From assembly GCF_000017845.1 (NCBI RefSeq), contig NC_010546.1, positions 3,750,001 through 3,782,000 of the forward strand: a stretch of 32,000 nucleotides of DNA, in the 5' to 3' direction. Of the stretch, positions 14,861-28,212 are shown piece by piece (within the stretch, counting starts at the first letter, position 1; each line of letters starts with the position of its first letter). Both the position numbers and the translations under genes were made by a program. Below the pieces are notes generated by a model, which saw nothing but the letters and a program-made list of their open reading frames with translations, did not search any database and was not told the origin of the DNA. The stretch is from Crocosphaera subtropica ATCC 51142 (GTDB taxonomy: Bacteria; Cyanobacteriota; Cyanobacteriia; Cyanobacteriales; Microcystaceae).

Positions 14861-16516
14861 CTACTCCCCCTGTCCCTCCTTTAAATCCTTGAATAGCTCC
14901 TCAGCCGCTTGCTCTGCTGCATCTACAAAGGGACGCAGAATCAAATCTACCTCAGAGGTTTGTAGTGCTTCATCTTCGTGATCTTTATGGATAGTGACGG
15001 CCAATTTCCCCTTATAGTCGTAGTGCTGGAGGGCGTGTAGCAGGGTTAGGTTAATCTCAATCCCTGGAATACTGCTAACGACCCACTTAACCGCATTCAG
15101 GGGAAGGTGACTGGGGTATTCTGGATCTTCTGCATCACCATAGTGAACCAAGAAACCCTGTCGCCGCCAACGCCGCACATTTTCTGGGTCAAAGTCCACA
15201 CCATGAACAACCAGTCCTTTCCTGCTGAGGCTGTTCACCAACCAACCACCATAGCGACCCAAGCCATAGACAATCACATCAGCTTTTGTGGCGGAAAACC
15301 CAGTATCCCCGGCTTCTTCTCGGTGTGGAATTCGGCGCTCGAAGATGCTCAGTGTGGGCGATAGCCACTCATACAGCAGGTGGGAATAAAGGATCATATA
15401 AGTGGACACGCCGATAGTAATTAAACCTACCAGGGTGATCAACCCCACCGTCTCTTCATCGATATGTCCTAGACTCAAACCCAAGGCCGCAAGAATTAGG
15501 GAAAACTCGCTAATTTGAGCTACGGTCAACCCAGAAAGCAAGCTGGTGCGTTTGCGATAACCCATATAGCCCATGATTGCCATGACAATGGTGGGGTTGC
15601 CAATCAGAACAAACAGGGACAACACTAGGGCAGGTACAATCTGCGCCCCCAGCAGATGTAAGTCGAGGTGAGCCCCCAGGTTCACAAAAAAGAACAGCAG
15701 AAGAAAGTCTCGAATGCTGACTAACCGTGACCCAATTGCATCCCGATAGCGAGTAGACGCTAAGGAAATCCCCGACAAAAATGCCCCGACTTCACTACTG
15801 AACCCTAAAATTTCACTTAGTGCAGAGAGTGTTACAGCCCAAGCGATCGCAAAGATAAGAAGCAATTCCTGCGATTGCGCCAAATGGTGGAGTAACTTCG
15901 GCAGCACAAAGGCCATCATGACCCCGACCCCTAGAAGCAACAGTCCTCCTTTTAGCACCAGTTGCAACAGGGTTATCCCTGGGGACAGAGCAGCATCACC
16001 TCCCAAAGCCGACAGCCCAATCATGACCAACACCACGACCAGGTCTTGCACAATCAAAAAGCCTAGCGCAATCCGACCATGTAGGGAATCAATCTCTCGT
16101 TTATCCGAGAGGAGCTTGACAATAATGATTGTGCTGGAGAAGGTCAAAGCGACGGCAATATACACCGCTGTTAGGGGAGTAAACCCCAACAAAAGAGAAA
16201 TCAGAAAACCCACGATTGACGTAAAGGCGACTTGCCCGAACCCGGTTGCTAGTGCTACCGACCCCATGCTTTGAATTAGGTGCAGGTCAAGCTTTAGCCC
16301 TACCACAAACAGCAGAAGGGCAATGCCCAACTCCGCAAACAGTTCCATTTCTTCACTTGGGATAACCCAGCCAAAGGCCGAAGGTCCAACCAGAATACCT
16401 ACTGCAATGAAGGCGACAATCAACGGTTGACGTAACGCCAAACCCATTGCTCCCACTATAGTGGAAACCAATAAGACAAAAGCGGTTTCATAGAAAGGGT
16501 TAGTGAGTAGTTCCAT
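14861..16516 (-). CDS. CPA2 cation:proton antiporter (KefB/KefC-like) with a C-terminal TrkA-N/RCK domain
   Basis: About 12 TM helices of the Na+/H+-exchanger type, then the Rossmann motif VIVYGLGRYGG and an RCK-like tail. Possible starts are Met1, Met19 and Met23 (16582, 16528, 16516); I chose MELLTNPFYETAF. The DNA is visibly GC-richer than its neighbours. Confidence 0.85.
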   Translation of the reverse strand: MELLTNPFYETAFVLLVSTIVGAMGLALRQPLIVAFIAVGILVGPSAFGWVIPSEEMELFAELGIALLLFVVGLKLDLHLIQSMGSVALATGFGQVAFTSIVGFLISLLLGFTPLTAVYIAVALTFSSTIIIVKLLSDKREIDSLHGRIALGFLIVQDLVVVLVMIGLSALGGDAALSPGITLLQLVLKGGLLLLGVGVMMAFVLPKLLHHLAQSQELLLIFAIAWAVTLSALSEILGFSSEVGAFLSGISLASTRYRDAIGSRLVSIRDFLLLFFFVNLGAHLDLHLLGAQIVPALVLSLFVLIGNPTIVMAIMGYMGYRKRTSLLSGLTVAQISEFSLILAALGLSLGHIDEETVGLITLVGLITIGVSTYMILYSHLLYEWLSPTLSIFERRIPHREEAGDTGFSATKADVIVYGLGRYGGWLVNSLSRKGLVVHGVDFDPENVRRWRRQGFLVHYGDAEDPEYPSHLPLNAVKWVVSSIPGIEINLTLLHALQHYDYKGKLAVTIHKDHEDEALQTSEVDLILRPFVDAAEQAAEELFKDLKEGQGE

Positions 16517-16652
16517 TGTTGAATCCATTCGCAAAAAAGAAAGGGTTATTAACTCAATTTGTGTTGAGTTTTGAGAACTCATTTCTGACAGTTTCTCAAA
16601 GTCTCTTTCAATCTTAATCTTTAATTCTCAACTCTTTTAACTTACATTCTGT

Positions 16653-21336: not shown

Positions 21337-23244
21337 ATGAAAAAAATAAGTAACTACAAAACTATTCTCAAATATTTATTCATTCCTGGGTTAATTTTAA
21401 CTGTTGCTGGTTTAGTTCCTCTTTTTATTACTAAAACTCAGAGTATTCTTTATCTCAGTTTAGTGATTGCAGGAGGTATATTCTTATTTATCTGGTTAAT
21501 CTATTTATTAGTAACAGGAAGAAGTTTTTGGCAGAAAAGATCAACACAAACAGGGACAAATGCTTTTGTTTCTGTCTTATCTTTAGTGATTATATTGGGA
21601 TTAATTAATTTTATTGCGGTTCGTTATTCTCCTCGTATTGATTTGACCGAAAATCAACTTTATACTTTATCCCCAGAAACGCAAGAAATCGTTAAAAATC
21701 TAGACAAACCGACTAAAGTTTATGTTTTTGACAAGGAAATAACTCCTCAAGATGAAGATTTATTAGAAAATTATCAACGTTACAATAATAACTTTCAATT
21801 TGAACTGATTGATCCTGATATTAAAGTGGGACTGACTGAACAGTTTAATGTTCAATCATTAGGAGATGTTTATCTAGAATATGGAGATAAAAAACAATTA
21901 GTTCAAACCTTAATTGTTTTTAATCAAAGGGAACCCTTATCAGAAATCAAACTAACCAATGCAATTGAAAAAATCAAGAAGGATTATATTCCAAAAATTT
22001 ATCTATTACAAGGTCATGGGGAATATTCCTTAGAACCCTCCCCCGAAGGAAGTTTATCAGAAGCAACCAACAGTCTTGAAAGTAAAGGATATGAAGTTAA
22101 CCCCTTAAACTTAGTAGAAAATGCAGGTATTCCTGATGATGCAGATGTCATTATTATTGCCAGTCCAAAACGTCAATTATTTGAGCAAGAAGTGACAGCA
22201 TTAAAAGAGTATTCTGAACAAGGTGGTAACTTATTTTTATTACTCGATCCTAACACAGATCCAGGGTTAGAACCTATACTAAAAGACTGGGGAATTCAAT
22301 TAGATAATCGTATTATTATAGATGGTTCAGGGTCAGGAAATATTGTCGGTTTAGGACCAACAACTCCCTTTATTACTAACTACGGGAACCACCCAATTAC
22401 AGAAGAATTTGCTAATAGTATTTCTTTTTATCCGTTATCTCGTCCTGTAGATACGGTTGAGGTAGAAAACATCGAAGCAACCTCTTTATTAGTCACGAAT
22501 GAACAAATGTGGGCTGAAAGTAATTTAGAATCAGAAGAAGTTATTTTTGATCCCGAAGAAGACATTCCTGGACCTTTTGATTTAGGAGTTGCATTAACCC
22601 GTACAATTGATAAAGAAGTAGTCAATAATGACACAAAAGAAGATAATCAAAATAGTGAAACAAATGAAGGAATTGAAAATTTAGATGAATCTGAAAACAA
22701 AGAAATAGAAAATAATAATAATTCTGAACAAGAAACGGAGGAACAAAATCAGTCAGATTCTTCTGATAATGAAGTTAATAATAATACTGAACAAGAAAAG
22801 GATGATAACAATAGTGAAACTATCAATAATCAATCTGATGTAAATGAAGAGGAAACAGAAGGTAATAATAACTCTGACTCATCAGTTAATGACGAAACCA
22901 ATAAAAATCAAAAAGAAGAAAATACGTCTAACCCTTCTAATAATGAACAAAATAATAACCCTGAAAAAGAGCAAATCGAATCTCGTTTAGTAGTAATTGG
23001 AAATTCTACCTTTGCTACTGATAGTTTATTCAATCAACAATTAAACGGAGATGTCTTTTTAAACTCTGTACAATGGTTAAGTAATCAAGATGATCAACCT
23101 CTATCCATTCGTCCCAAGGAACCAAAAGATAGAAAACTAAATTTATCCCCCTTACAAGCTAATATAATCACCATATTGTCCCTGGGTATTGTTCCTTTAT
23201 TGGGGTTAATTGCTGCTGGAATAACCTGGTGGCGAAGAAGATAA
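21337..23244 (+). CDS. GldG-like ABC-transporter auxiliary protein with a ~120-aa acidic low-complexity insertion
   Basis: N-terminal TM helices, the GldG-type core (RIDLTENQLYTLSPET...IYLLQGHGE...LFLLLDP...SFYPLSRP...RLVVIGNSTFATD) and a C-terminal TM anchor. The N/E/D/S-rich insertion is encoded at about 22618-22980. Confidence 0.85.
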   Translation: MKKISNYKTILKYLFIPGLILTVAGLVPLFITKTQSILYLSLVIAGGIFLFIWLIYLLVTGRSFWQKRSTQTGTNAFVSVLSLVIILGLINFIAVRYSPRIDLTENQLYTLSPETQEIVKNLDKPTKVYVFDKEITPQDEDLLENYQRYNNNFQFELIDPDIKVGLTEQFNVQSLGDVYLEYGDKKQLVQTLIVFNQREPLSEIKLTNAIEKIKKDYIPKIYLLQGHGEYSLEPSPEGSLSEATNSLESKGYEVNPLNLVENAGIPDDADVIIIASPKRQLFEQEVTALKEYSEQGGNLFLLLDPNTDPGLEPILKDWGIQLDNRIIIDGSGSGNIVGLGPTTPFITNYGNHPITEEFANSISFYPLSRPVDTVEVENIEATSLLVTNEQMWAESNLESEEVIFDPEEDIPGPFDLGVALTRTIDKEVVNNDTKEDNQNSETNEGIENLDESENKEIENNNNSEQETEEQNQSDSSDNEVNNNTEQEKDDNNSETINNQSDVNEEETEGNNNSDSSVNDETNKNQKEENTSNPSNNEQNNNPEKEQIESRLVVIGNSTFATDSLFNQQLNGDVFLNSVQWLSNQDDQPLSIRPKEPKDRKLNLSPLQANIITILSLGIVPLLGLIAAGITWWRRR

Positions 23245-23828: not shown

Positions 23829-23936
23829 TATATTTTCAGATTAATTTTATAATCTAATCAAAAACTAGGGAACGGCATCTTTGTTTAATAAGTCTCATCA
23901 ATAAGATGGGAAAACAAAGACAAAACTACAGTGATC

Positions 23937-25625
23937 ATGAATAATTTTCGTGCTATATGTATAGGAATAGAAGACTATTTACATTATCAACCCTTAAACG
24001 GATCTGAAAATAGCGCACAAGCACTTTATCGCTACTTCTTTGAAGAAGCTAACATCCCATCTCATCAATTATTATTACTGACTGATACCTCTCCCTCCCC
24101 AGGAAAACGATCAACCTATCCTAACCGAGATAATATTTTACAATGGATTAATGATAGTCCCATTAAAGTTGAATATTGCTGGTTTTTCTTTCAAGGATAC
24201 GGTATTAATTATCAAGGAGAAGACTACTTACTACCGATCGATAGTAACTTAAACACTATTCCCCAAACAGCTATAAAAGTGCGATCGCTTTTTGAAAAAT
24301 TACAAAATAGTAGCCAAAATTTACTCATCATTTTAGACTTACAAAATCCTTTAAAAGATGGGAAATTAGGACAAATAACTTTAGATTTAGCTCAGAAAAA
24401 AAATATTTCTTTGATTTTTTCTTGTCGTTCCCATGTTTATCAAAGCATTAGTGCAGAAAAAAGTATCTTTATTACTGCCTTAACCGAAGCTTTGCGCTAC
24501 TATAGTCATCATTTAACCCTTCATAAGTTAGACGCTTACTTCAAAGAAAGATTAAATCCTTCCCATCAAAAGGATTTTCCAGCGATCGCCCTTCCCATTA
24601 TTATTAGTCCTGAAACGATTCGTCATCAACCCCTATTACCTGCTTCTAAAAAGCCAATACTAGACAATCAAGAAAATCAAGCCCTATCGTTCAAAATTCA
24701 ACAAAAACCCCATCAAAGCCCTGACCAAAAGCCCACAAGTACCCTAATCTTACCTAAGATCCCATCAACCCCTTTCAAACCCCAACTGTCCTTAAATATC
24801 CCTCTGACGCAAACTAACATTAAACCGAGTTCTCCTGCTGCTTCTTTACCTTCTGTTTCCTCAACTGCCACAACAACCCCTGAACCTTCAAAAAAGTCAT
24901 CCCTAGGAAAATACTGGTTATGGATAGGAGGAATATTAGCAACAACCGCCGTTGTATGGTGGATGTCTCTGAAAATTGGTCAACATCTCAATGCTATCAA
25001 TTATCAAAAAATTCAAGAAAACCAACAGATTTTAGACTATGGGAAAATTTCCTTAAGTGTGCAACAAGCATCCCAATTTAACCAAGCTATTAGCTATGCA
25101 CGACAAATTCAACCCCATACAGCCCTGTATCAGCAAGCTCAGGTCAAAATTAACCAATGGAGCCAAATGATCCTAGATATTGCCCAAGGAAGAGCGATTA
25201 TAGGGGATTTTCAAGGGGCGATCGCAGCCATTAAACTGGTTCCTCCCGATAACCAACAACTTTATAATTTGGCACAACAATCTTTAAAAGAGTGGCAAAC
25301 CCTCAGTCAACAACAACACGATAATCAAGTTTTAATTGAAGCTGCCCTATCTTTAATTGAACCCAACCAAGCATCATCTTATAATCGAGCCATTAGACTC
25401 CTAAAACACTTAGAGAAAAAAGAGTTAGGTTATCATCATGCCCAAAAATTGATTGAACAATTAAGTAAAAACATATATCAATTAGCGCAAACCAGGGCCC
25501 AACAAGGACAATTAACCTTAGCCATTGAAACCATTGAATTAGTCCCCAATGATACTCAAGTTTATTCAATGGCACAAGAAGCAAAAATAAACTGGCAACA
25601 ACATCTTAATCGTACATCTAACTAA
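23937..25625 (+). CDS. Pseudo-orthocaspase: caspase (C14)-like domain with both catalytic residues substituted, Pro/Ser linker, one TM helix, C-terminal repeat domain
   Basis: The p20-like layout is AICIGIEDY...GSENSAQ...CWFFFQGYG...EDYLLPID...LLIILDLQNP. The canonical SGHG His is Tyr90 (TAC 24198-24200). The canonical D-x-C Cys is Gln138 (CAA 24342-24344). TM helix YWLWIGGILATTAVVWWMSL. The C-terminus has three copies of a motif ending ...LVP(P/N)D.Q.Y..AQ....W. ATG at 23937 (GTG at 23931 also possible). Confidence 0.7.
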   Translation: MNNFRAICIGIEDYLHYQPLNGSENSAQALYRYFFEEANIPSHQLLLLTDTSPSPGKRSTYPNRDNILQWINDSPIKVEYCWFFFQGYGINYQGEDYLLPIDSNLNTIPQTAIKVRSLFEKLQNSSQNLLIILDLQNPLKDGKLGQITLDLAQKKNISLIFSCRSHVYQSISAEKSIFITALTEALRYYSHHLTLHKLDAYFKERLNPSHQKDFPAIALPIIISPETIRHQPLLPASKKPILDNQENQALSFKIQQKPHQSPDQKPTSTLILPKIPSTPFKPQLSLNIPLTQTNIKPSSPAASLPSVSSTATTTPEPSKKSSLGKYWLWIGGILATTAVVWWMSLKIGQHLNAINYQKIQENQQILDYGKISLSVQQASQFNQAISYARQIQPHTALYQQAQVKINQWSQMILDIAQGRAIIGDFQGAIAAIKLVPPDNQQLYNLAQQSLKEWQTLSQQQHDNQVLIEAALSLIEPNQASSYNRAIRLLKHLEKKELGYHHAQKLIEQLSKNIYQLAQTRAQQGQLTLAIETIELVPNDTQVYSMAQEAKINWQQHLNRTSN

Positions 25626-25788: not shown

Positions 25789-25901
25789 ATATAGCGTTTC
25801 TTGGACTCATGAGGTACACCTAATATTTAACTCCTGACTCCTGACTCCTGACTCCTAAAACTAGAAAATGGTGTACCTCACAAGTATGAGAACTGCTATA
25901 T
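25789..25901. repeat. MITE-like element: 32-bp imperfect inverted repeats flanking a (CTCCTGA)x3 heptamer core
   Basis: The left arm 25789-25820 and right arm 25870-25901 are complementary at 25 of 32 positions, with the first 11 (ggtgtacctca) perfect. The core 25831-25856 is ctcctga x3 plus ctcct. No coding capacity. Confidence 0.6.
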
Positions 25902-26343: not shown

Positions 26344-28212
26344 ATGAATACAAGATACACAGAAACTTTTTTGTTTCTCTCTCGCCTTTCCCGTAGAAGT
26401 AACAAAGGCTTTGCTTTGGGATTTGTGTTAACGGCTGGCGTTCTCATGGCAGCAACCGGGGCTGTTATGTTACTCAGAAGTAGCAGCGAACAAGAAAAAG
26501 TTATAGCGCAAGGAGCTACTGCCCAAGGCAAAACCAGTGGAGAAGTTGCTATTGCTAGAGTACAATTTCTTCTCGCTAGATATCCCTTTCTCGCTCAATA
26601 TGATAGTTCTCAATGGAGCAATGTAGCTAATCCCAGTACAGATATTGGACAAGACTTTGAAGAACACATTGAGATCACAAATAATACAGGTGGTCGAGAA
26701 AGTTCTTGTGCAAGTGAAAGTGAAGAAGATAGCAGTGAAGTTTTAACCCCTGAACAACAGCAAGCTGAGATTATTAGCTACGTTGATACATACACATCAG
26801 ATTTAAGTCCTTATGAGCAATCAGGCCAAAGCAAATGGCAACAAATCGATACCACGAATTCTAGTCAGGTAGATTTCAGACTTATTAGTTATAACGCTCC
26901 TGAATCAGTACCAGGTATGGGAGAGTTAAAACTTCAGAGCATGGCGAATCGAGACAAACAATTCAAAGAATCGCCTACTCAATTAACTGTAACTATTCCA
27001 GTAAAACAAAATGAGACAACAACGGAAGTTGAAGAAGGAGATACTCCTGGCCTCTGGACTCAACAGGGAAAAGTTATCAAAGGTAGTGGGGGAGGTGGTA
27101 ATAAACACTGGGCTGCCCATATTTGGGTCAGTGATCCTTGTTATAGTCAGAAACCAGATGATCCAGCAACTTTAGAAGTGTTAGAAGATATAGAAGACGA
27201 AACTTTACTCAGTTACAACGGGAAAACCTATAAACCACCTATTGTTAAAGATATGGATTTTCCTGAGTTTCCTGAATTTCCTACTGATCTTCCTGCAAGT
27301 CAAGTCAATGTGACTGTCTCAAGTGGCAATGGCAATGGCAATGGCAATGGCAATAAAAAAGCTAGTAGCTATCAAGATAGTTATTTCTCTACTGTTGCCA
27401 GTGTGATGAATGGGTTTGTGGATAAAGCATTTACTAAAATTTTCGGTGGTGTTGCTTTAGCTAAAAATGGCAACGGTAAGGGCAAGGGTCTAGTTGATGA
27501 CATCACTGATACCACGAATGATGTAGTCGATGACATCACTGATACTACAAATGATATAGTCGATGATCTCACGAATACAGAGAATACAAACGATACCACC
27601 AATGTTGGTGGCGGGGCTGTTTGTGGAAATAACAGTGCTAATGCTGCCAATGGAAGCGTATTTCCCAGAAATGGAGATACAGGTAAGATAGTCAAAGTCG
27701 GCAATGAAGACGTTTGCGTTTATGAATATATCTGGAATCAAACCCCCAGTGATACGACCATTCAAACTGTCAGCCAAGATGGTAAACGTCAAAAGGTAAT
27801 TTTCTACATAAAAGATGGAGTCGATTTTGATCTCAAAGGCAACGAGAAAATTCTCAAAAACTGTGGGGATTTTGACGACAATGCGGATCTCTGTAGACCA
27901 ACGGATTTCCAAATATTTGCCCAAGGAACTGGCAATTTTTGTTTAAGTGGTGCTGTGGTTATGGATGCCTTTGTTTTTGCTCCAGAACGTCATTCTGGAG
28001 TCAATGGAGGACCAAAAGGAGCCTTGAGAGGAACCATTTGGGTGAAAGGATGGAATACTTCTAGCTGTGGTTCTAATGGTAATCATCTTCACGTTACTCA
28101 AACAGGAAACTGGTCAGATTTTTATGGGGTAAAAAACCCTGAAGCCGGTCCGTCCATTGTTATTGGACAACCTGCCACCGTTAAAACTGAAGCCTTTAAT
28201 CCCGATATATAA
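26344..28212 (+). CDS. Large (622 aa) PilX_N-type pseudopilin-like protein, paralogue A, with internal tandem repeats
   Basis: The class-III-like N-terminus is RRSNKG|FALGFVLTAGVLMAATGAVMLL (no Glu at +5), followed by ...AQGKTSGEVAIARV as in PilX N-terminal domains. It is colinear with the next gene. It contains the GNGNGNGNGN and VDDITDTTND repeats. Confidence 0.75.
   Translation: MNTRYTETFLFLSRLSRRSNKGFALGFVLTAGVLMAATGAVMLLRSSSEQEKVIAQGATAQGKTSGEVAIARVQFLLARYPFLAQYDSSQWSNVANPSTDIGQDFEEHIEITNNTGGRESSCASESEEDSSEVLTPEQQQAEIISYVDTYTSDLSPYEQSGQSKWQQIDTTNSSQVDFRLISYNAPESVPGMGELKLQSMANRDKQFKESPTQLTVTIPVKQNETTTEVEEGDTPGLWTQQGKVIKGSGGGGNKHWAAHIWVSDPCYSQKPDDPATLEVLEDIEDETLLSYNGKTYKPPIVKDMDFPEFPEFPTDLPASQVNVTVSSGNGNGNGNGNKKASSYQDSYFSTVASVMNGFVDKAFTKIFGGVALAKNGNGKGKGLVDDITDTTNDVVDDITDTTNDIVDDLTNTENTNDTTNVGGGAVCGNNSANAANGSVFPRNGDTGKIVKVGNEDVCVYEYIWNQTPSDTTIQTVSQDGKRQKVIFYIKDGVDFDLKGNEKILKNCGDFDDNADLCRPTDFQIFAQGTGNFCLSGAVVMDAFVFAPERHSGVNGGPKGALRGTIWVKGWNTSSCGSNGNHLHVTQTGNWSDFYGVKNPEAGPSIVIGQPATVKTEAFNPDI
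27325..27354 (+). repeat. Hexanucleotide microsatellite (GGCAAT)x5 encoding (Gly-Asn)5
   Basis: A perfect 5-unit repeat inside paralogue A. A degenerate echo, aatggcaacggtaagggcaagggt, lies at about 27466-27489. Confidence 0.9.
27493..27591 (+). repeat. In-frame 33-bp tandem repeat x3 (VDDITDTTNDV / VDDITDTTNDI / VDDLTNTENTN)
   Basis: The units are 27493-27525, 27526-27558 and 27559-27591. The first two differ at only a few positions and the third is more diverged. Confidence 0.9.

Follow-up and report, generated by a model that had tools for sequence, protein, structure and literature searches.

The Gene cce_3645 and Its Product

The window analyzed here is a stretch of 32,000 nucleotides of Crocosphaera subtropica ATCC 51142 (contig NC_010546.1, positions 3,750,001 to 3,782,000), and its gene of interest is cce_3645, a pseudo-orthocaspase gene located at positions 23937..25625 of the window (+ strand, stop codon included). 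All features of the gene described below lie on the same strand. The product comprises 562 amino acids (aa) from the ATG at 23937, the Met of which is also the start of the family alignment, and an in-frame GTG at 23931 is an alternative start that adds two residues (564 aa). It is 100% identical to the metaclust entry 43989.cce_3645 (COG4249), and a literature search for the name “cce_3645” found no paper. The protein is confirmed as a membrane-anchored, caspase-like protein from which both catalytic residues are gone. Among the other searches, the NCBIfam scan gave only a spurious, sub-threshold glycosylase match, and in the PADLOC scan the generic “caspase” model alone was matched (aa 6–134), with no evidence of a defence system.

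The Caspase-Like Domain

The catalytically dead domain of the caspase-haemoglobinase fold spans aa 1–235 (23937..24641) and includes the p20-like part together with the contiguous beta5/beta6 region, as delimited by Pfam, AlphaFold, and Foldseek. The Pfam profile Peptidase_C14 (PF00656) matches aa 5–213 with E=1.3e-10 and 41.9 bits (gathering cut-off 21.4), and the same profile is matched by 44 of the 47 aligned relatives. The alignment to C14 profiles, which the preliminary description of this DNA (made from the sequence alone) had proposed as a check, is therefore significant for the N-terminal region.

The AlphaFold2 model of cce_3645, built on the 47-sequence alignment, shows a confident alpha/beta domain (1–235), a disordered stretch (239–325), a long helix (325–371), and a confident helical domain (378–561). 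In the caspase domain the predicted local distance difference test score (pLDDT) is mostly 80–96, the strands are placed at 6–10, 45–48, 78–99, 126–136, 158–164, and 221–223, and the six-stranded alpha/beta/alpha sandwich of caspase-family structures is present. When compared with the PDB by Foldseek, the domain matched the MALT1 paracaspase and the fungal and plant metacaspases Yca1 and AtMC9, with E values from 1e-7 to 1e-5 over ~240–260 columns. As modelled, aa 1–235 are a genuine and complete caspase fold. The caspase similarity that had been claimed for the N-terminal ~150 aa is thus borne out, but the fold extends to ~235 aa. With respect to the orthocaspases, the protein comes from a cyanobacterium, and its fold forms a single uninterrupted domain of 235 aa with a disordered linker behind it. 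Searches of the PDB with the single sequence returned chance matches to designed repeat proteins only, and family profiles were required.

Replacement of the Catalytic Dyad

The catalytic positions were located by profile alignments. The family profile aligned to yeast Yca1 (4f6o) places “WfFFsGYG” over “LHYSGHG” (E=8e-5). The profile of residues 76–236 aligned to MALT1 (3v4o) places “fsGyG” over “YAGHG” and “LLDinR” over “LLDMCR”, with an E value of 0.0065 that is marginal alone and agrees with the structural match. The motifs of MALT1 and Yca1 that are aligned in this way hold the catalytic His and Cys. Because of these two alignments, Tyr88 (codon TAC, 24198..24200, motif FFFQGYG) is assigned to the His position and Gln136 (codon CAA, 24342..24344, motif ILDLQNP) to the Cys position. 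The same two residues had been named in the preliminary description, but as Tyr90 and Gln138, a numbering that holds from the GTG only.

At no position of the 47-sequence alignment is a His or a Cys invariant or nearly so, and the check for a His/Cys dyad elsewhere in the domain is consequently negative. The catalytic His-Cys dyad of an active C14 peptidase is missing from cce_3645. Conserved in the same alignment are Asp134, Ser162, Asp96, Asp102, and Glu184, together with Trp82, which lies six residues before Tyr88 (C-W82-FFFQG-Y88-G) and is invariant.

The dyad was counted by protein in an alignment of the 120 best homologues and by locus in 85 fetched loci. In the 120 homologues the His position is Tyr in nearly all, and the Cys position is Asn in 79 and Gln in 19, with K, R, Y, T, S, or H in the remainder. 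Such free variation of the Cys position within the family cannot be reconciled with a nucleophile there. Judging from these alignments, cce_3645 is unable to act as a cysteine protease and canonical proteolysis is excluded.

As for the substrate pocket, Asp134 (24336–24338), two residues before Gln136, is the retained Asp of the S1 pocket. The first S1-pocket Asp is found in the sequence “QADAQAL” in 96 of the 120 family members and aligns with the CIND Asp of Yca1. According to the family alignment its position is occupied in cce_3645 by Ser26 (24012..24014), and the Crocosphaera clade has Ser or Asn there (ENSAQAL or ENNAQAL), with Asp134 kept. The substrate pocket of this clade is further degraded, one of its two S1-pocket Asp residues being lost.

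The Linker, the Transmembrane Helix, and the C-Terminal Repeats

The caspase-like domain is followed by a disordered, basic, Pro/Ser/Thr/Lys-rich linker (aa 236–325, 24642..24911), recognized by its composition (P15, S15, K11, and T9 out of 91 residues) and by pLDDT values <50 at 239–325. A single transmembrane (TM) helix comes next (aa 326–345, YWLWIGGILATTAVVWWMSL, 24912..24971). It is the only hydrophobic segment of the protein and lies inside the long helix 325–371 of the model. Its Kyte-Doolittle window score is 1.46 in cce_3645 and reaches 3.1 in homologues, the segment being conserved. In this respect, composition, hydrophobicity, and AlphaFold agree with the P/S/T-rich linker and the one TM helix of the preliminary description.

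The C-terminal domain is composed of two super-repeats of ~91 aa each. Super-repeat 1 (aa 366–456, 25032..25304) includes the motif copies 1 (aa 381–408) and 2 (aa 425–453), and super-repeat 2 (aa 467–556, 25335..25604) includes copy 3 (aa 482–509), which is degenerate (W→L), and copy 4 (aa 526–553). The repeat motif is “AI..a..vP....Y..AQ..i..W”, with two hairpins per super-repeat, and the alignment of the two super-repeats to each other by hhalign has a probability of 99.9% and E=7e-34. When modelled alone, the domain is all-helical with a pLDDT of 94.2 and a predicted template modelling score (pTM) of 0.80. A helical repeat domain had been proposed earlier and is supported by this model, but with three copies of the motif instead of the four, in two super-repeats, that hhalign shows.

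The best Foldseek matches of the domain are BamD and the consensus tetratricopeptide repeat (TPR) proteins (CTPR), with E~5e-3 and TM-scores (template modelling scores) of at most 0.36, and in sequence searches only designed helical repeat proteins were matched. The TPR profiles on cce_3645 gave TPR_19 with E=9.7. The TPR-like Pfam model ARM_TT21 was matched by 21 of the 47 relatives (E<=0.001, over 28–60 residues), and four relatives scanned singly against it scored 25.9–31.5 bits at a cut-off of 27. The C-terminal domain is, on the modelled structure, a well-folded, duplicated, TPR-like module which has no Pfam model.

An exhaustive HMMER search with the profile of this domain retrieved 1,316 cluster representatives, and 100 of the 130 sequences newly retrieved with the profile carry the pseudo-caspase domain. 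A word-indexed search with the same profile yielded mostly short sequences (many of them from short contigs and several named peptidase C14) and did not reveal other architectures.

Two other architectures carry the repeats. P0183 is a complete Na+-dependent CNT/NupC transporter (Nucleos_tra2_N, Gate, and Nucleos_tra2_C) that ends in a Pro/Ser/Thr (PST) linker and then the double super-repeat seen in cce_3645. P0243, P0251, P0263, and P0268 make up a second family, 730–780 aa long, in which a basic tail at the N-terminus is combined with one TM helix, a “LP..PNCP..FWP” motif, and 4–6 matched stretches of the repeat “A..I....Y.EAQ..I..W”; no significant Pfam domain was found in these four.

The Family and Its Relation to the YN Clade

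Full-length homologues of cce_3645 are found across cyanobacteria with 30–47% identity and 99% coverage. A scan of one genome per species gave 294 loci, and among the 80 listed all titles that name a taxon are cyanobacterial. The Y-N dyad is present in 64 of the 85 fetched loci, including every Nostocales locus.

Among the loci fetched, the residues of the dyad follow the lineages. In Nostocales, Coleofasciculaceae, Symploca, and others, the His position is Tyr and the Cys position is Asn, with the first pocket Asp retained. Moorena (L022, L023, L024, L028, and L029) has Cys where the catalytic His would be, a lineage-specific change at the nearly invariant Tyr, and combines it with Asn at the Cys position. 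Tyr at the His position is combined with Lys at the Cys position in Elainellaceae, with Arg in Pleurocapsa, and with Tyr in Gloeothece PCC 7424. In the case of Crocosphaera/Cyanothece, all 10 of the 10 genomes fetched have Tyr and Gln, and the first pocket Asp is changed to Ser or Asn. Among the 19 Gln-bearing sequences of the best 120, the Y-Q homologues with a source name are all from Crocosphaera.

According to Klemencic et al. (2019, PMC6426788), a conserved Trp before the Tyr is a feature of the YN clade, and unicellular diazotrophs, Cyanothece among them, have no YN variants. In cce_3645 the Tyr and the upstream Trp are both present (Tyr88 and Trp82). The Asn of the Cys position is replaced by Gln136, the nearest relatives outside Crocosphaera being Y-N, and of the two S1-pocket Asp residues Asp134 is kept and the first is Ser26. 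Best hits, shared architecture, and motifs support cce_3645 as the putative Crocosphaera orthologue of the “YN” pseudo-orthocaspase clade. The YN orthologue is then present in Crocosphaera but has been classed apart because the residue at the Cys position differs. The data indicate that the published restriction of the YN clade to multicellular diazotrophs is probably an artefact of sorting by the letters of the dyad.

Three metacaspases have been reported from ATCC 51142 by Jiang et al. (2010, PMC2853523): an H→Y/C→S variant, a true NACHT-WD40 enzyme (641676675), and 641678142 with H→Y/C→Q. The Gln at the Cys position was unique to 641678142, which was classed as “cbMC-alpha-other” with an unidentified C-terminal domain, and the H→Y/C→N proteins of Anabaena and Nostoc were named cbMC-alpha-TM (PMC2853523). 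Given the same strain and the same unique substitution, 641678142 and cce_3645 are almost certainly the same gene. In PMC2853523 neither the TM helix nor the repeat domain of 641678142 is mentioned, nor is its orthology to the Y-N/TM proteins. The Tyr/Gln replacement of this strain was thus already published in 2010, contrary to the novelty implied in the preliminary description, and cce_3645 is an ordinary member of a widespread cyanobacterial family.

The class and its TM architecture are likewise covered in the literature (PMC3501461, PMC6426788, and PMC8283722). The metacaspase with a C-terminal TM helix is the commonest architecture unique to cyanobacteria, its domain being predicted as intracellular (Asplund-Samuelsson et al. 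2012), and YQ variants as well as 37 pseudo-orthocaspases with TM helices have been described (Bhattacharjee et al. 2021, PMC8283722). What is added here is the YN orthology, the family of the C-terminal domain (at least 1,300 cluster representatives), the degraded pocket of Crocosphaera, and a candidate for a secreted partner in filamentous species.

Topology

No signal peptide is found in cce_3645, whose TM helix comes only after 325 residues that include a folded domain. The positive-inside rule gave no clear direction over the whole family and was informative when the Crocosphaera clade was taken separately. In this clade the 15 residues flanking the helix have a net charge of +3.35 before and +1.76 after it, with more positive charge before the helix in 13 of the 17 proteins, and N-in is therefore favoured. 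The other architectures of the repeat domain point to the same direction. CNT transporters have an Nout-Cout topology (PMC4659628). The repeat domain is expected outside the cytoplasm because it is C-terminal on the CNT transporter P0183 and follows a basic tail and a TM helix in the multi-repeat proteins. With moderate confidence, we infer that the pseudo-caspase domain and the linker are cytoplasmic, with the repeat domain in either the periplasm or the lumen of the thylakoids.

The opposite orientation, with the caspase-like domain and the linker extracytoplasmic and the repeat domain cytoplasmic, would fit the acidic segment before the TM helix and the “RNR” after it that are seen in most filamentous homologues. 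However, it would require a folded 235-aa domain to cross the membrane N-terminus first in a protein devoid of a signal peptide. It also disagrees with the charges of the Crocosphaera clade and with the outside position of the repeats in the CNT fusion and in the N-anchored proteins, and it is considered quite unlikely.

Gene Neighborhood

Upstream of cce_3645, after a gap of ~100 bp, the window contains genes for an ABC ATPase, an ABC-2 permease, a GldG-like ABC_transp_aux protein, and a DUF4340 protein. Downstream, past a gap of 718 bp, a pilin-like cluster is located (DUF7305 and N_methyl/GspH). In the 85 loci inspected, the arrangement with ABC-2/GldG/DUF4340 and pilin genes recurs only in L005–L011, which are the closest Crocosphaera/Cyanothece genomes. 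It is missing in Crocosphaera sp. UHCC 0190 (61% identity) and XPORK-15E (L012), and also in Pleurocapsa PCC 7327, Gloeothece PCC 7424, Coleofasciculus, and ~70 other genomes. The gene does lie between an exporter operon and a pilin operon, as had been described, but the conservation of this neighborhood, which had been named as a check, is lost outside the closest relatives, and the functional inference drawn from the placement is lost with it. Because the arrangement is conserved only among the closest relatives, it says nothing on function.

A different neighbor was found in filamentous lineages and in metagenome-assembled genomes (MAGs) without a taxon name. In 53 of the 85 loci (within the range L014–L085), a divergently oriented gene for a secreted hypothetical protein of ~180 aa is located ~200 bp upstream of the pseudo-orthocaspase gene, for instance at L022:3833-4375 and L028:2037-2579 (both on the − strand). 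The protein has a signal peptide up to “VQA”, the segments AYTARVDL...LRRAEA.ARAAAQRSFD.DILVTDV...LEVSR..W..RPD..WATYF, and a Pro-rich tail, and no Pfam model matched it. It has 281 homologues, and the source names among the best 120 of them are all filamentous cyanobacteria or generic MAG labels. No copy of the family is present in the window, and no Crocosphaera name appears among the named entries of the best 120 of the 281. This secreted protein is a candidate for the partner that the extracytoplasmic repeat domain would bind.

Several other features of the surroundings were recorded. In Crocosphaera sp. UHCC 0190, the cell division gene sepF (L004:10234-10596) lies 3′ of the orthologue on the same strand, a single instance that is of interest only for the likeness in architecture to the divisome protein HetF. 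The GldG-like ABC_transp_aux gene of the window (21337-23244, +) has an insertion of ~120 aa of low complexity, rich in Asn, Glu, Ser, and Asp (~aa 425–545), which falls between the conserved domain and the C-terminal TM helix. The first gene of the pilin cluster (26344-28212, +) encodes 622 aa with a (GN)n run and tandem “DDITDTTNDVV” repeats and has no Pfam match. The open reading frames (ORFs) that follow are DUF7305 and N_methyl/GspH (minor-pilin-like), the cluster being syntenic only in the closest Crocosphaera genomes.

Within the 718-bp gap, a 32-nt imperfect inverted repeat (25789-25901, 78% complementary) surrounds a run of CTCCTGA heptamers (25830-25856) and looks like a small hairpin or an element resembling a miniature inverted-repeat transposable element (MITE). 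A perfect 10-nt inverted repeat (25670-25679/25720-25729) is located shortly past the stop codon of cce_3645. The Rfam and terminator scans around the gene gave no Rfam family and no canonical terminator. Elsewhere in the window, the GC content peaks at 0.505 in 15001-16000 (~0.38 for the window), inside a 573-aa ORF (14861-16582, −).

A Probable Non-Catalytic Transmembrane Adaptor

Taken together, cce_3645 is best read as the Crocosphaera/Cyanothece orthologue of the YN-type pseudo-orthocaspases and as a single-pass, non-catalytic transmembrane adaptor, a reading to which we give a probability of roughly 0.6. In detail, the extracytoplasmic TPR-like helical repeat domain would bind a partner outside the cytoplasm, and the dead caspase fold, on its flexible basic tether of ~90 residues, would be the module through which a cytoplasmic partner docks or oligomerises. 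No enzymatic step would be involved. The architecture would parallel that of HetF (CHAT domain, TM helix, and periplasmic TPR) without catalysis. The variable Cys position, set beside the conserved Tyr, Trp, DYL.P.D motif, and Asp134, suggests that the fold has a structural or binding role. The scaffold or sensor role proposed in the preliminary description remains the best guess, by way of the architecture, but its basis in the neighborhood fails.

Some points weigh against the adaptor reading. The loss of one pocket Asp in the Crocosphaera clade weakens the idea of a pocket that still binds Arg or Lys. Outside this clade the charge flanking the TM helix is ambiguous or slightly reversed (+0.04 before and +0.77 after). 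The CNT fusion P0183 is one cluster representative and a possible gene-calling artefact. The likeness to HetF is one of architecture only, and for none of the members of the YN clade has a binding partner, a localisation, or a phenotype been reported.

The most probable competitor, albeit an unlikely one, is a regulator resembling cFLIP, in which the dead caspase domain would heterodimerise with, or be processed by, the NACHT-WD40 orthocaspase and so steer, from the membrane, a pathway of proteolysis or cell death. The strain has one true orthocaspase to offer for this purpose, namely 641676675 with NACHT and WD40 (Jiang et al. 2010, PMC2853523), and the pairs cFLIP/caspase-8 and TbMCA4/TbMCA3 are among the precedents discussed in PMC6426788. 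In addition, the deletion of SyOC (Sll0148, Tyr-Gly) of Synechocystis PCC 6803 increases the tolerance to H2O2, which suggests a pro-death role (PMC7889975), but SyOC may belong to another clade. Pleurocapsa PCC 7327, reported to have pseudo-orthocaspases only (PMC8283722), keeps a family member (P0028), and the family therefore seems to need no active orthocaspase as a partner. Besides, no true orthocaspase adjoins the gene in any of the 85 loci.

A scaffold at the envelope, acting together with the ABC-2/GldG/DUF4340 exporter upstream or with the pilin-like operon downstream, is suggested by the common strand, the proximity in the window, and an arrangement shared by 8 Crocosphaera/Cyanothece loci that are closely related. 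Since the synteny is gone at 61–63% protein identity within the genus (UHCC 0190; XPORK-15E, L012) and in every other lineage examined, the downstream gap measures 718 bp, and the family is far wider than the arrangement, this explanation is largely refuted and has very little probability left. Residual or alternative catalysis, by which cce_3645 would still be a hydrolase through other residues, could appeal to the conserved Asp134, Ser162, Asp96, Asp102, and Glu184 and to AtMC2, which is cited in PMC6426788 for a dyad-independent metacaspase function. However, with no conserved Cys or His in the 47-sequence alignment, a Cys position that takes N, Q, K, R, Y, T, S, or H, and one pocket Asp lost in the Crocosphaera clade, it is highly improbable.

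Starting from the non-catalytic adaptor, a bolder proposal can be made, to which we assign a low probability. The C-terminal module might be a cyanobacteria-specific extracytoplasmic binding domain, and the dead caspase part of a trans-envelope adaptor, for instance a HetF-like component of the divisome or of envelope biogenesis without proteolysis. The occurrence of the module on a CNT transporter and in multi-repeat proteins anchored in the membrane fits this proposal, as does the pairing of the filamentous gene with the divergent secreted protein of ~180 aa. If true, the secreted protein would be the natural ligand, and the Crocosphaera variant would have lost the secreted partner, the Asn, and one pocket Asp.

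Comparison with Known Systems

Pseudo-orthocaspases are found in nearly all cyanobacteria and are not known to have a biochemical function. A defined topology and a partner for the YN clade would be useful to this small field. The YN pseudo-orthocaspases are the closest system. They share with cce_3645 the FFF(S/Q)GYG motif, the Trp, the LD-x-(N/Q) motif, the single TM helix, and the C-terminal double super-repeat. In contrast to them, cce_3645 has Gln for Asn and Ser for the first pocket Asp, its TM helix and C-terminal domain are not set apart by a spacer, and it is devoid of the divergent secreted neighbor of ~180 aa that is present at 53 of the 85 loci.

SyOC is the only functionally studied cyanobacterial pseudo-orthocaspase that was found in the literature search, and like cce_3645 it has Tyr at the His position. 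Its dyad is Tyr-Gly (PMC6426788, Table 1), instead of the Tyr-Ser that had been quoted for Synechocystis in the preliminary description. No Synechocystis name was found among the named best homologues of cce_3645.

MALT1 and the metacaspases (PDB 3v4o, 4f6o, 7qp0, and 6w8s) share the caspase-haemoglobinase fold and the motifs around the dyad with cce_3645. Unlike it, they are soluble, active His/Cys enzymes, and the identity is 12–16%.

HetF of Anabaena PCC 7120 is a membrane protein with a CHAT domain, a single TM helix, and a TPR-type C-terminal domain described as periplasmic (PMC8406250 and PMC9457339). Its Cys295 is active, PatU3 is a substrate that it cleaves, and it belongs to the divisome (PMC8406250 and PMC9457339). 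The order of the parts is the same in HetF and cce_3645, with a caspase-like domain of clan CD at the N-terminus, one TM helix, and a TPR-type domain at the C-terminus. On the contrary, in the profile scan cce_3645 matches Peptidase_C14 and not CHAT, and its dyad is missing.

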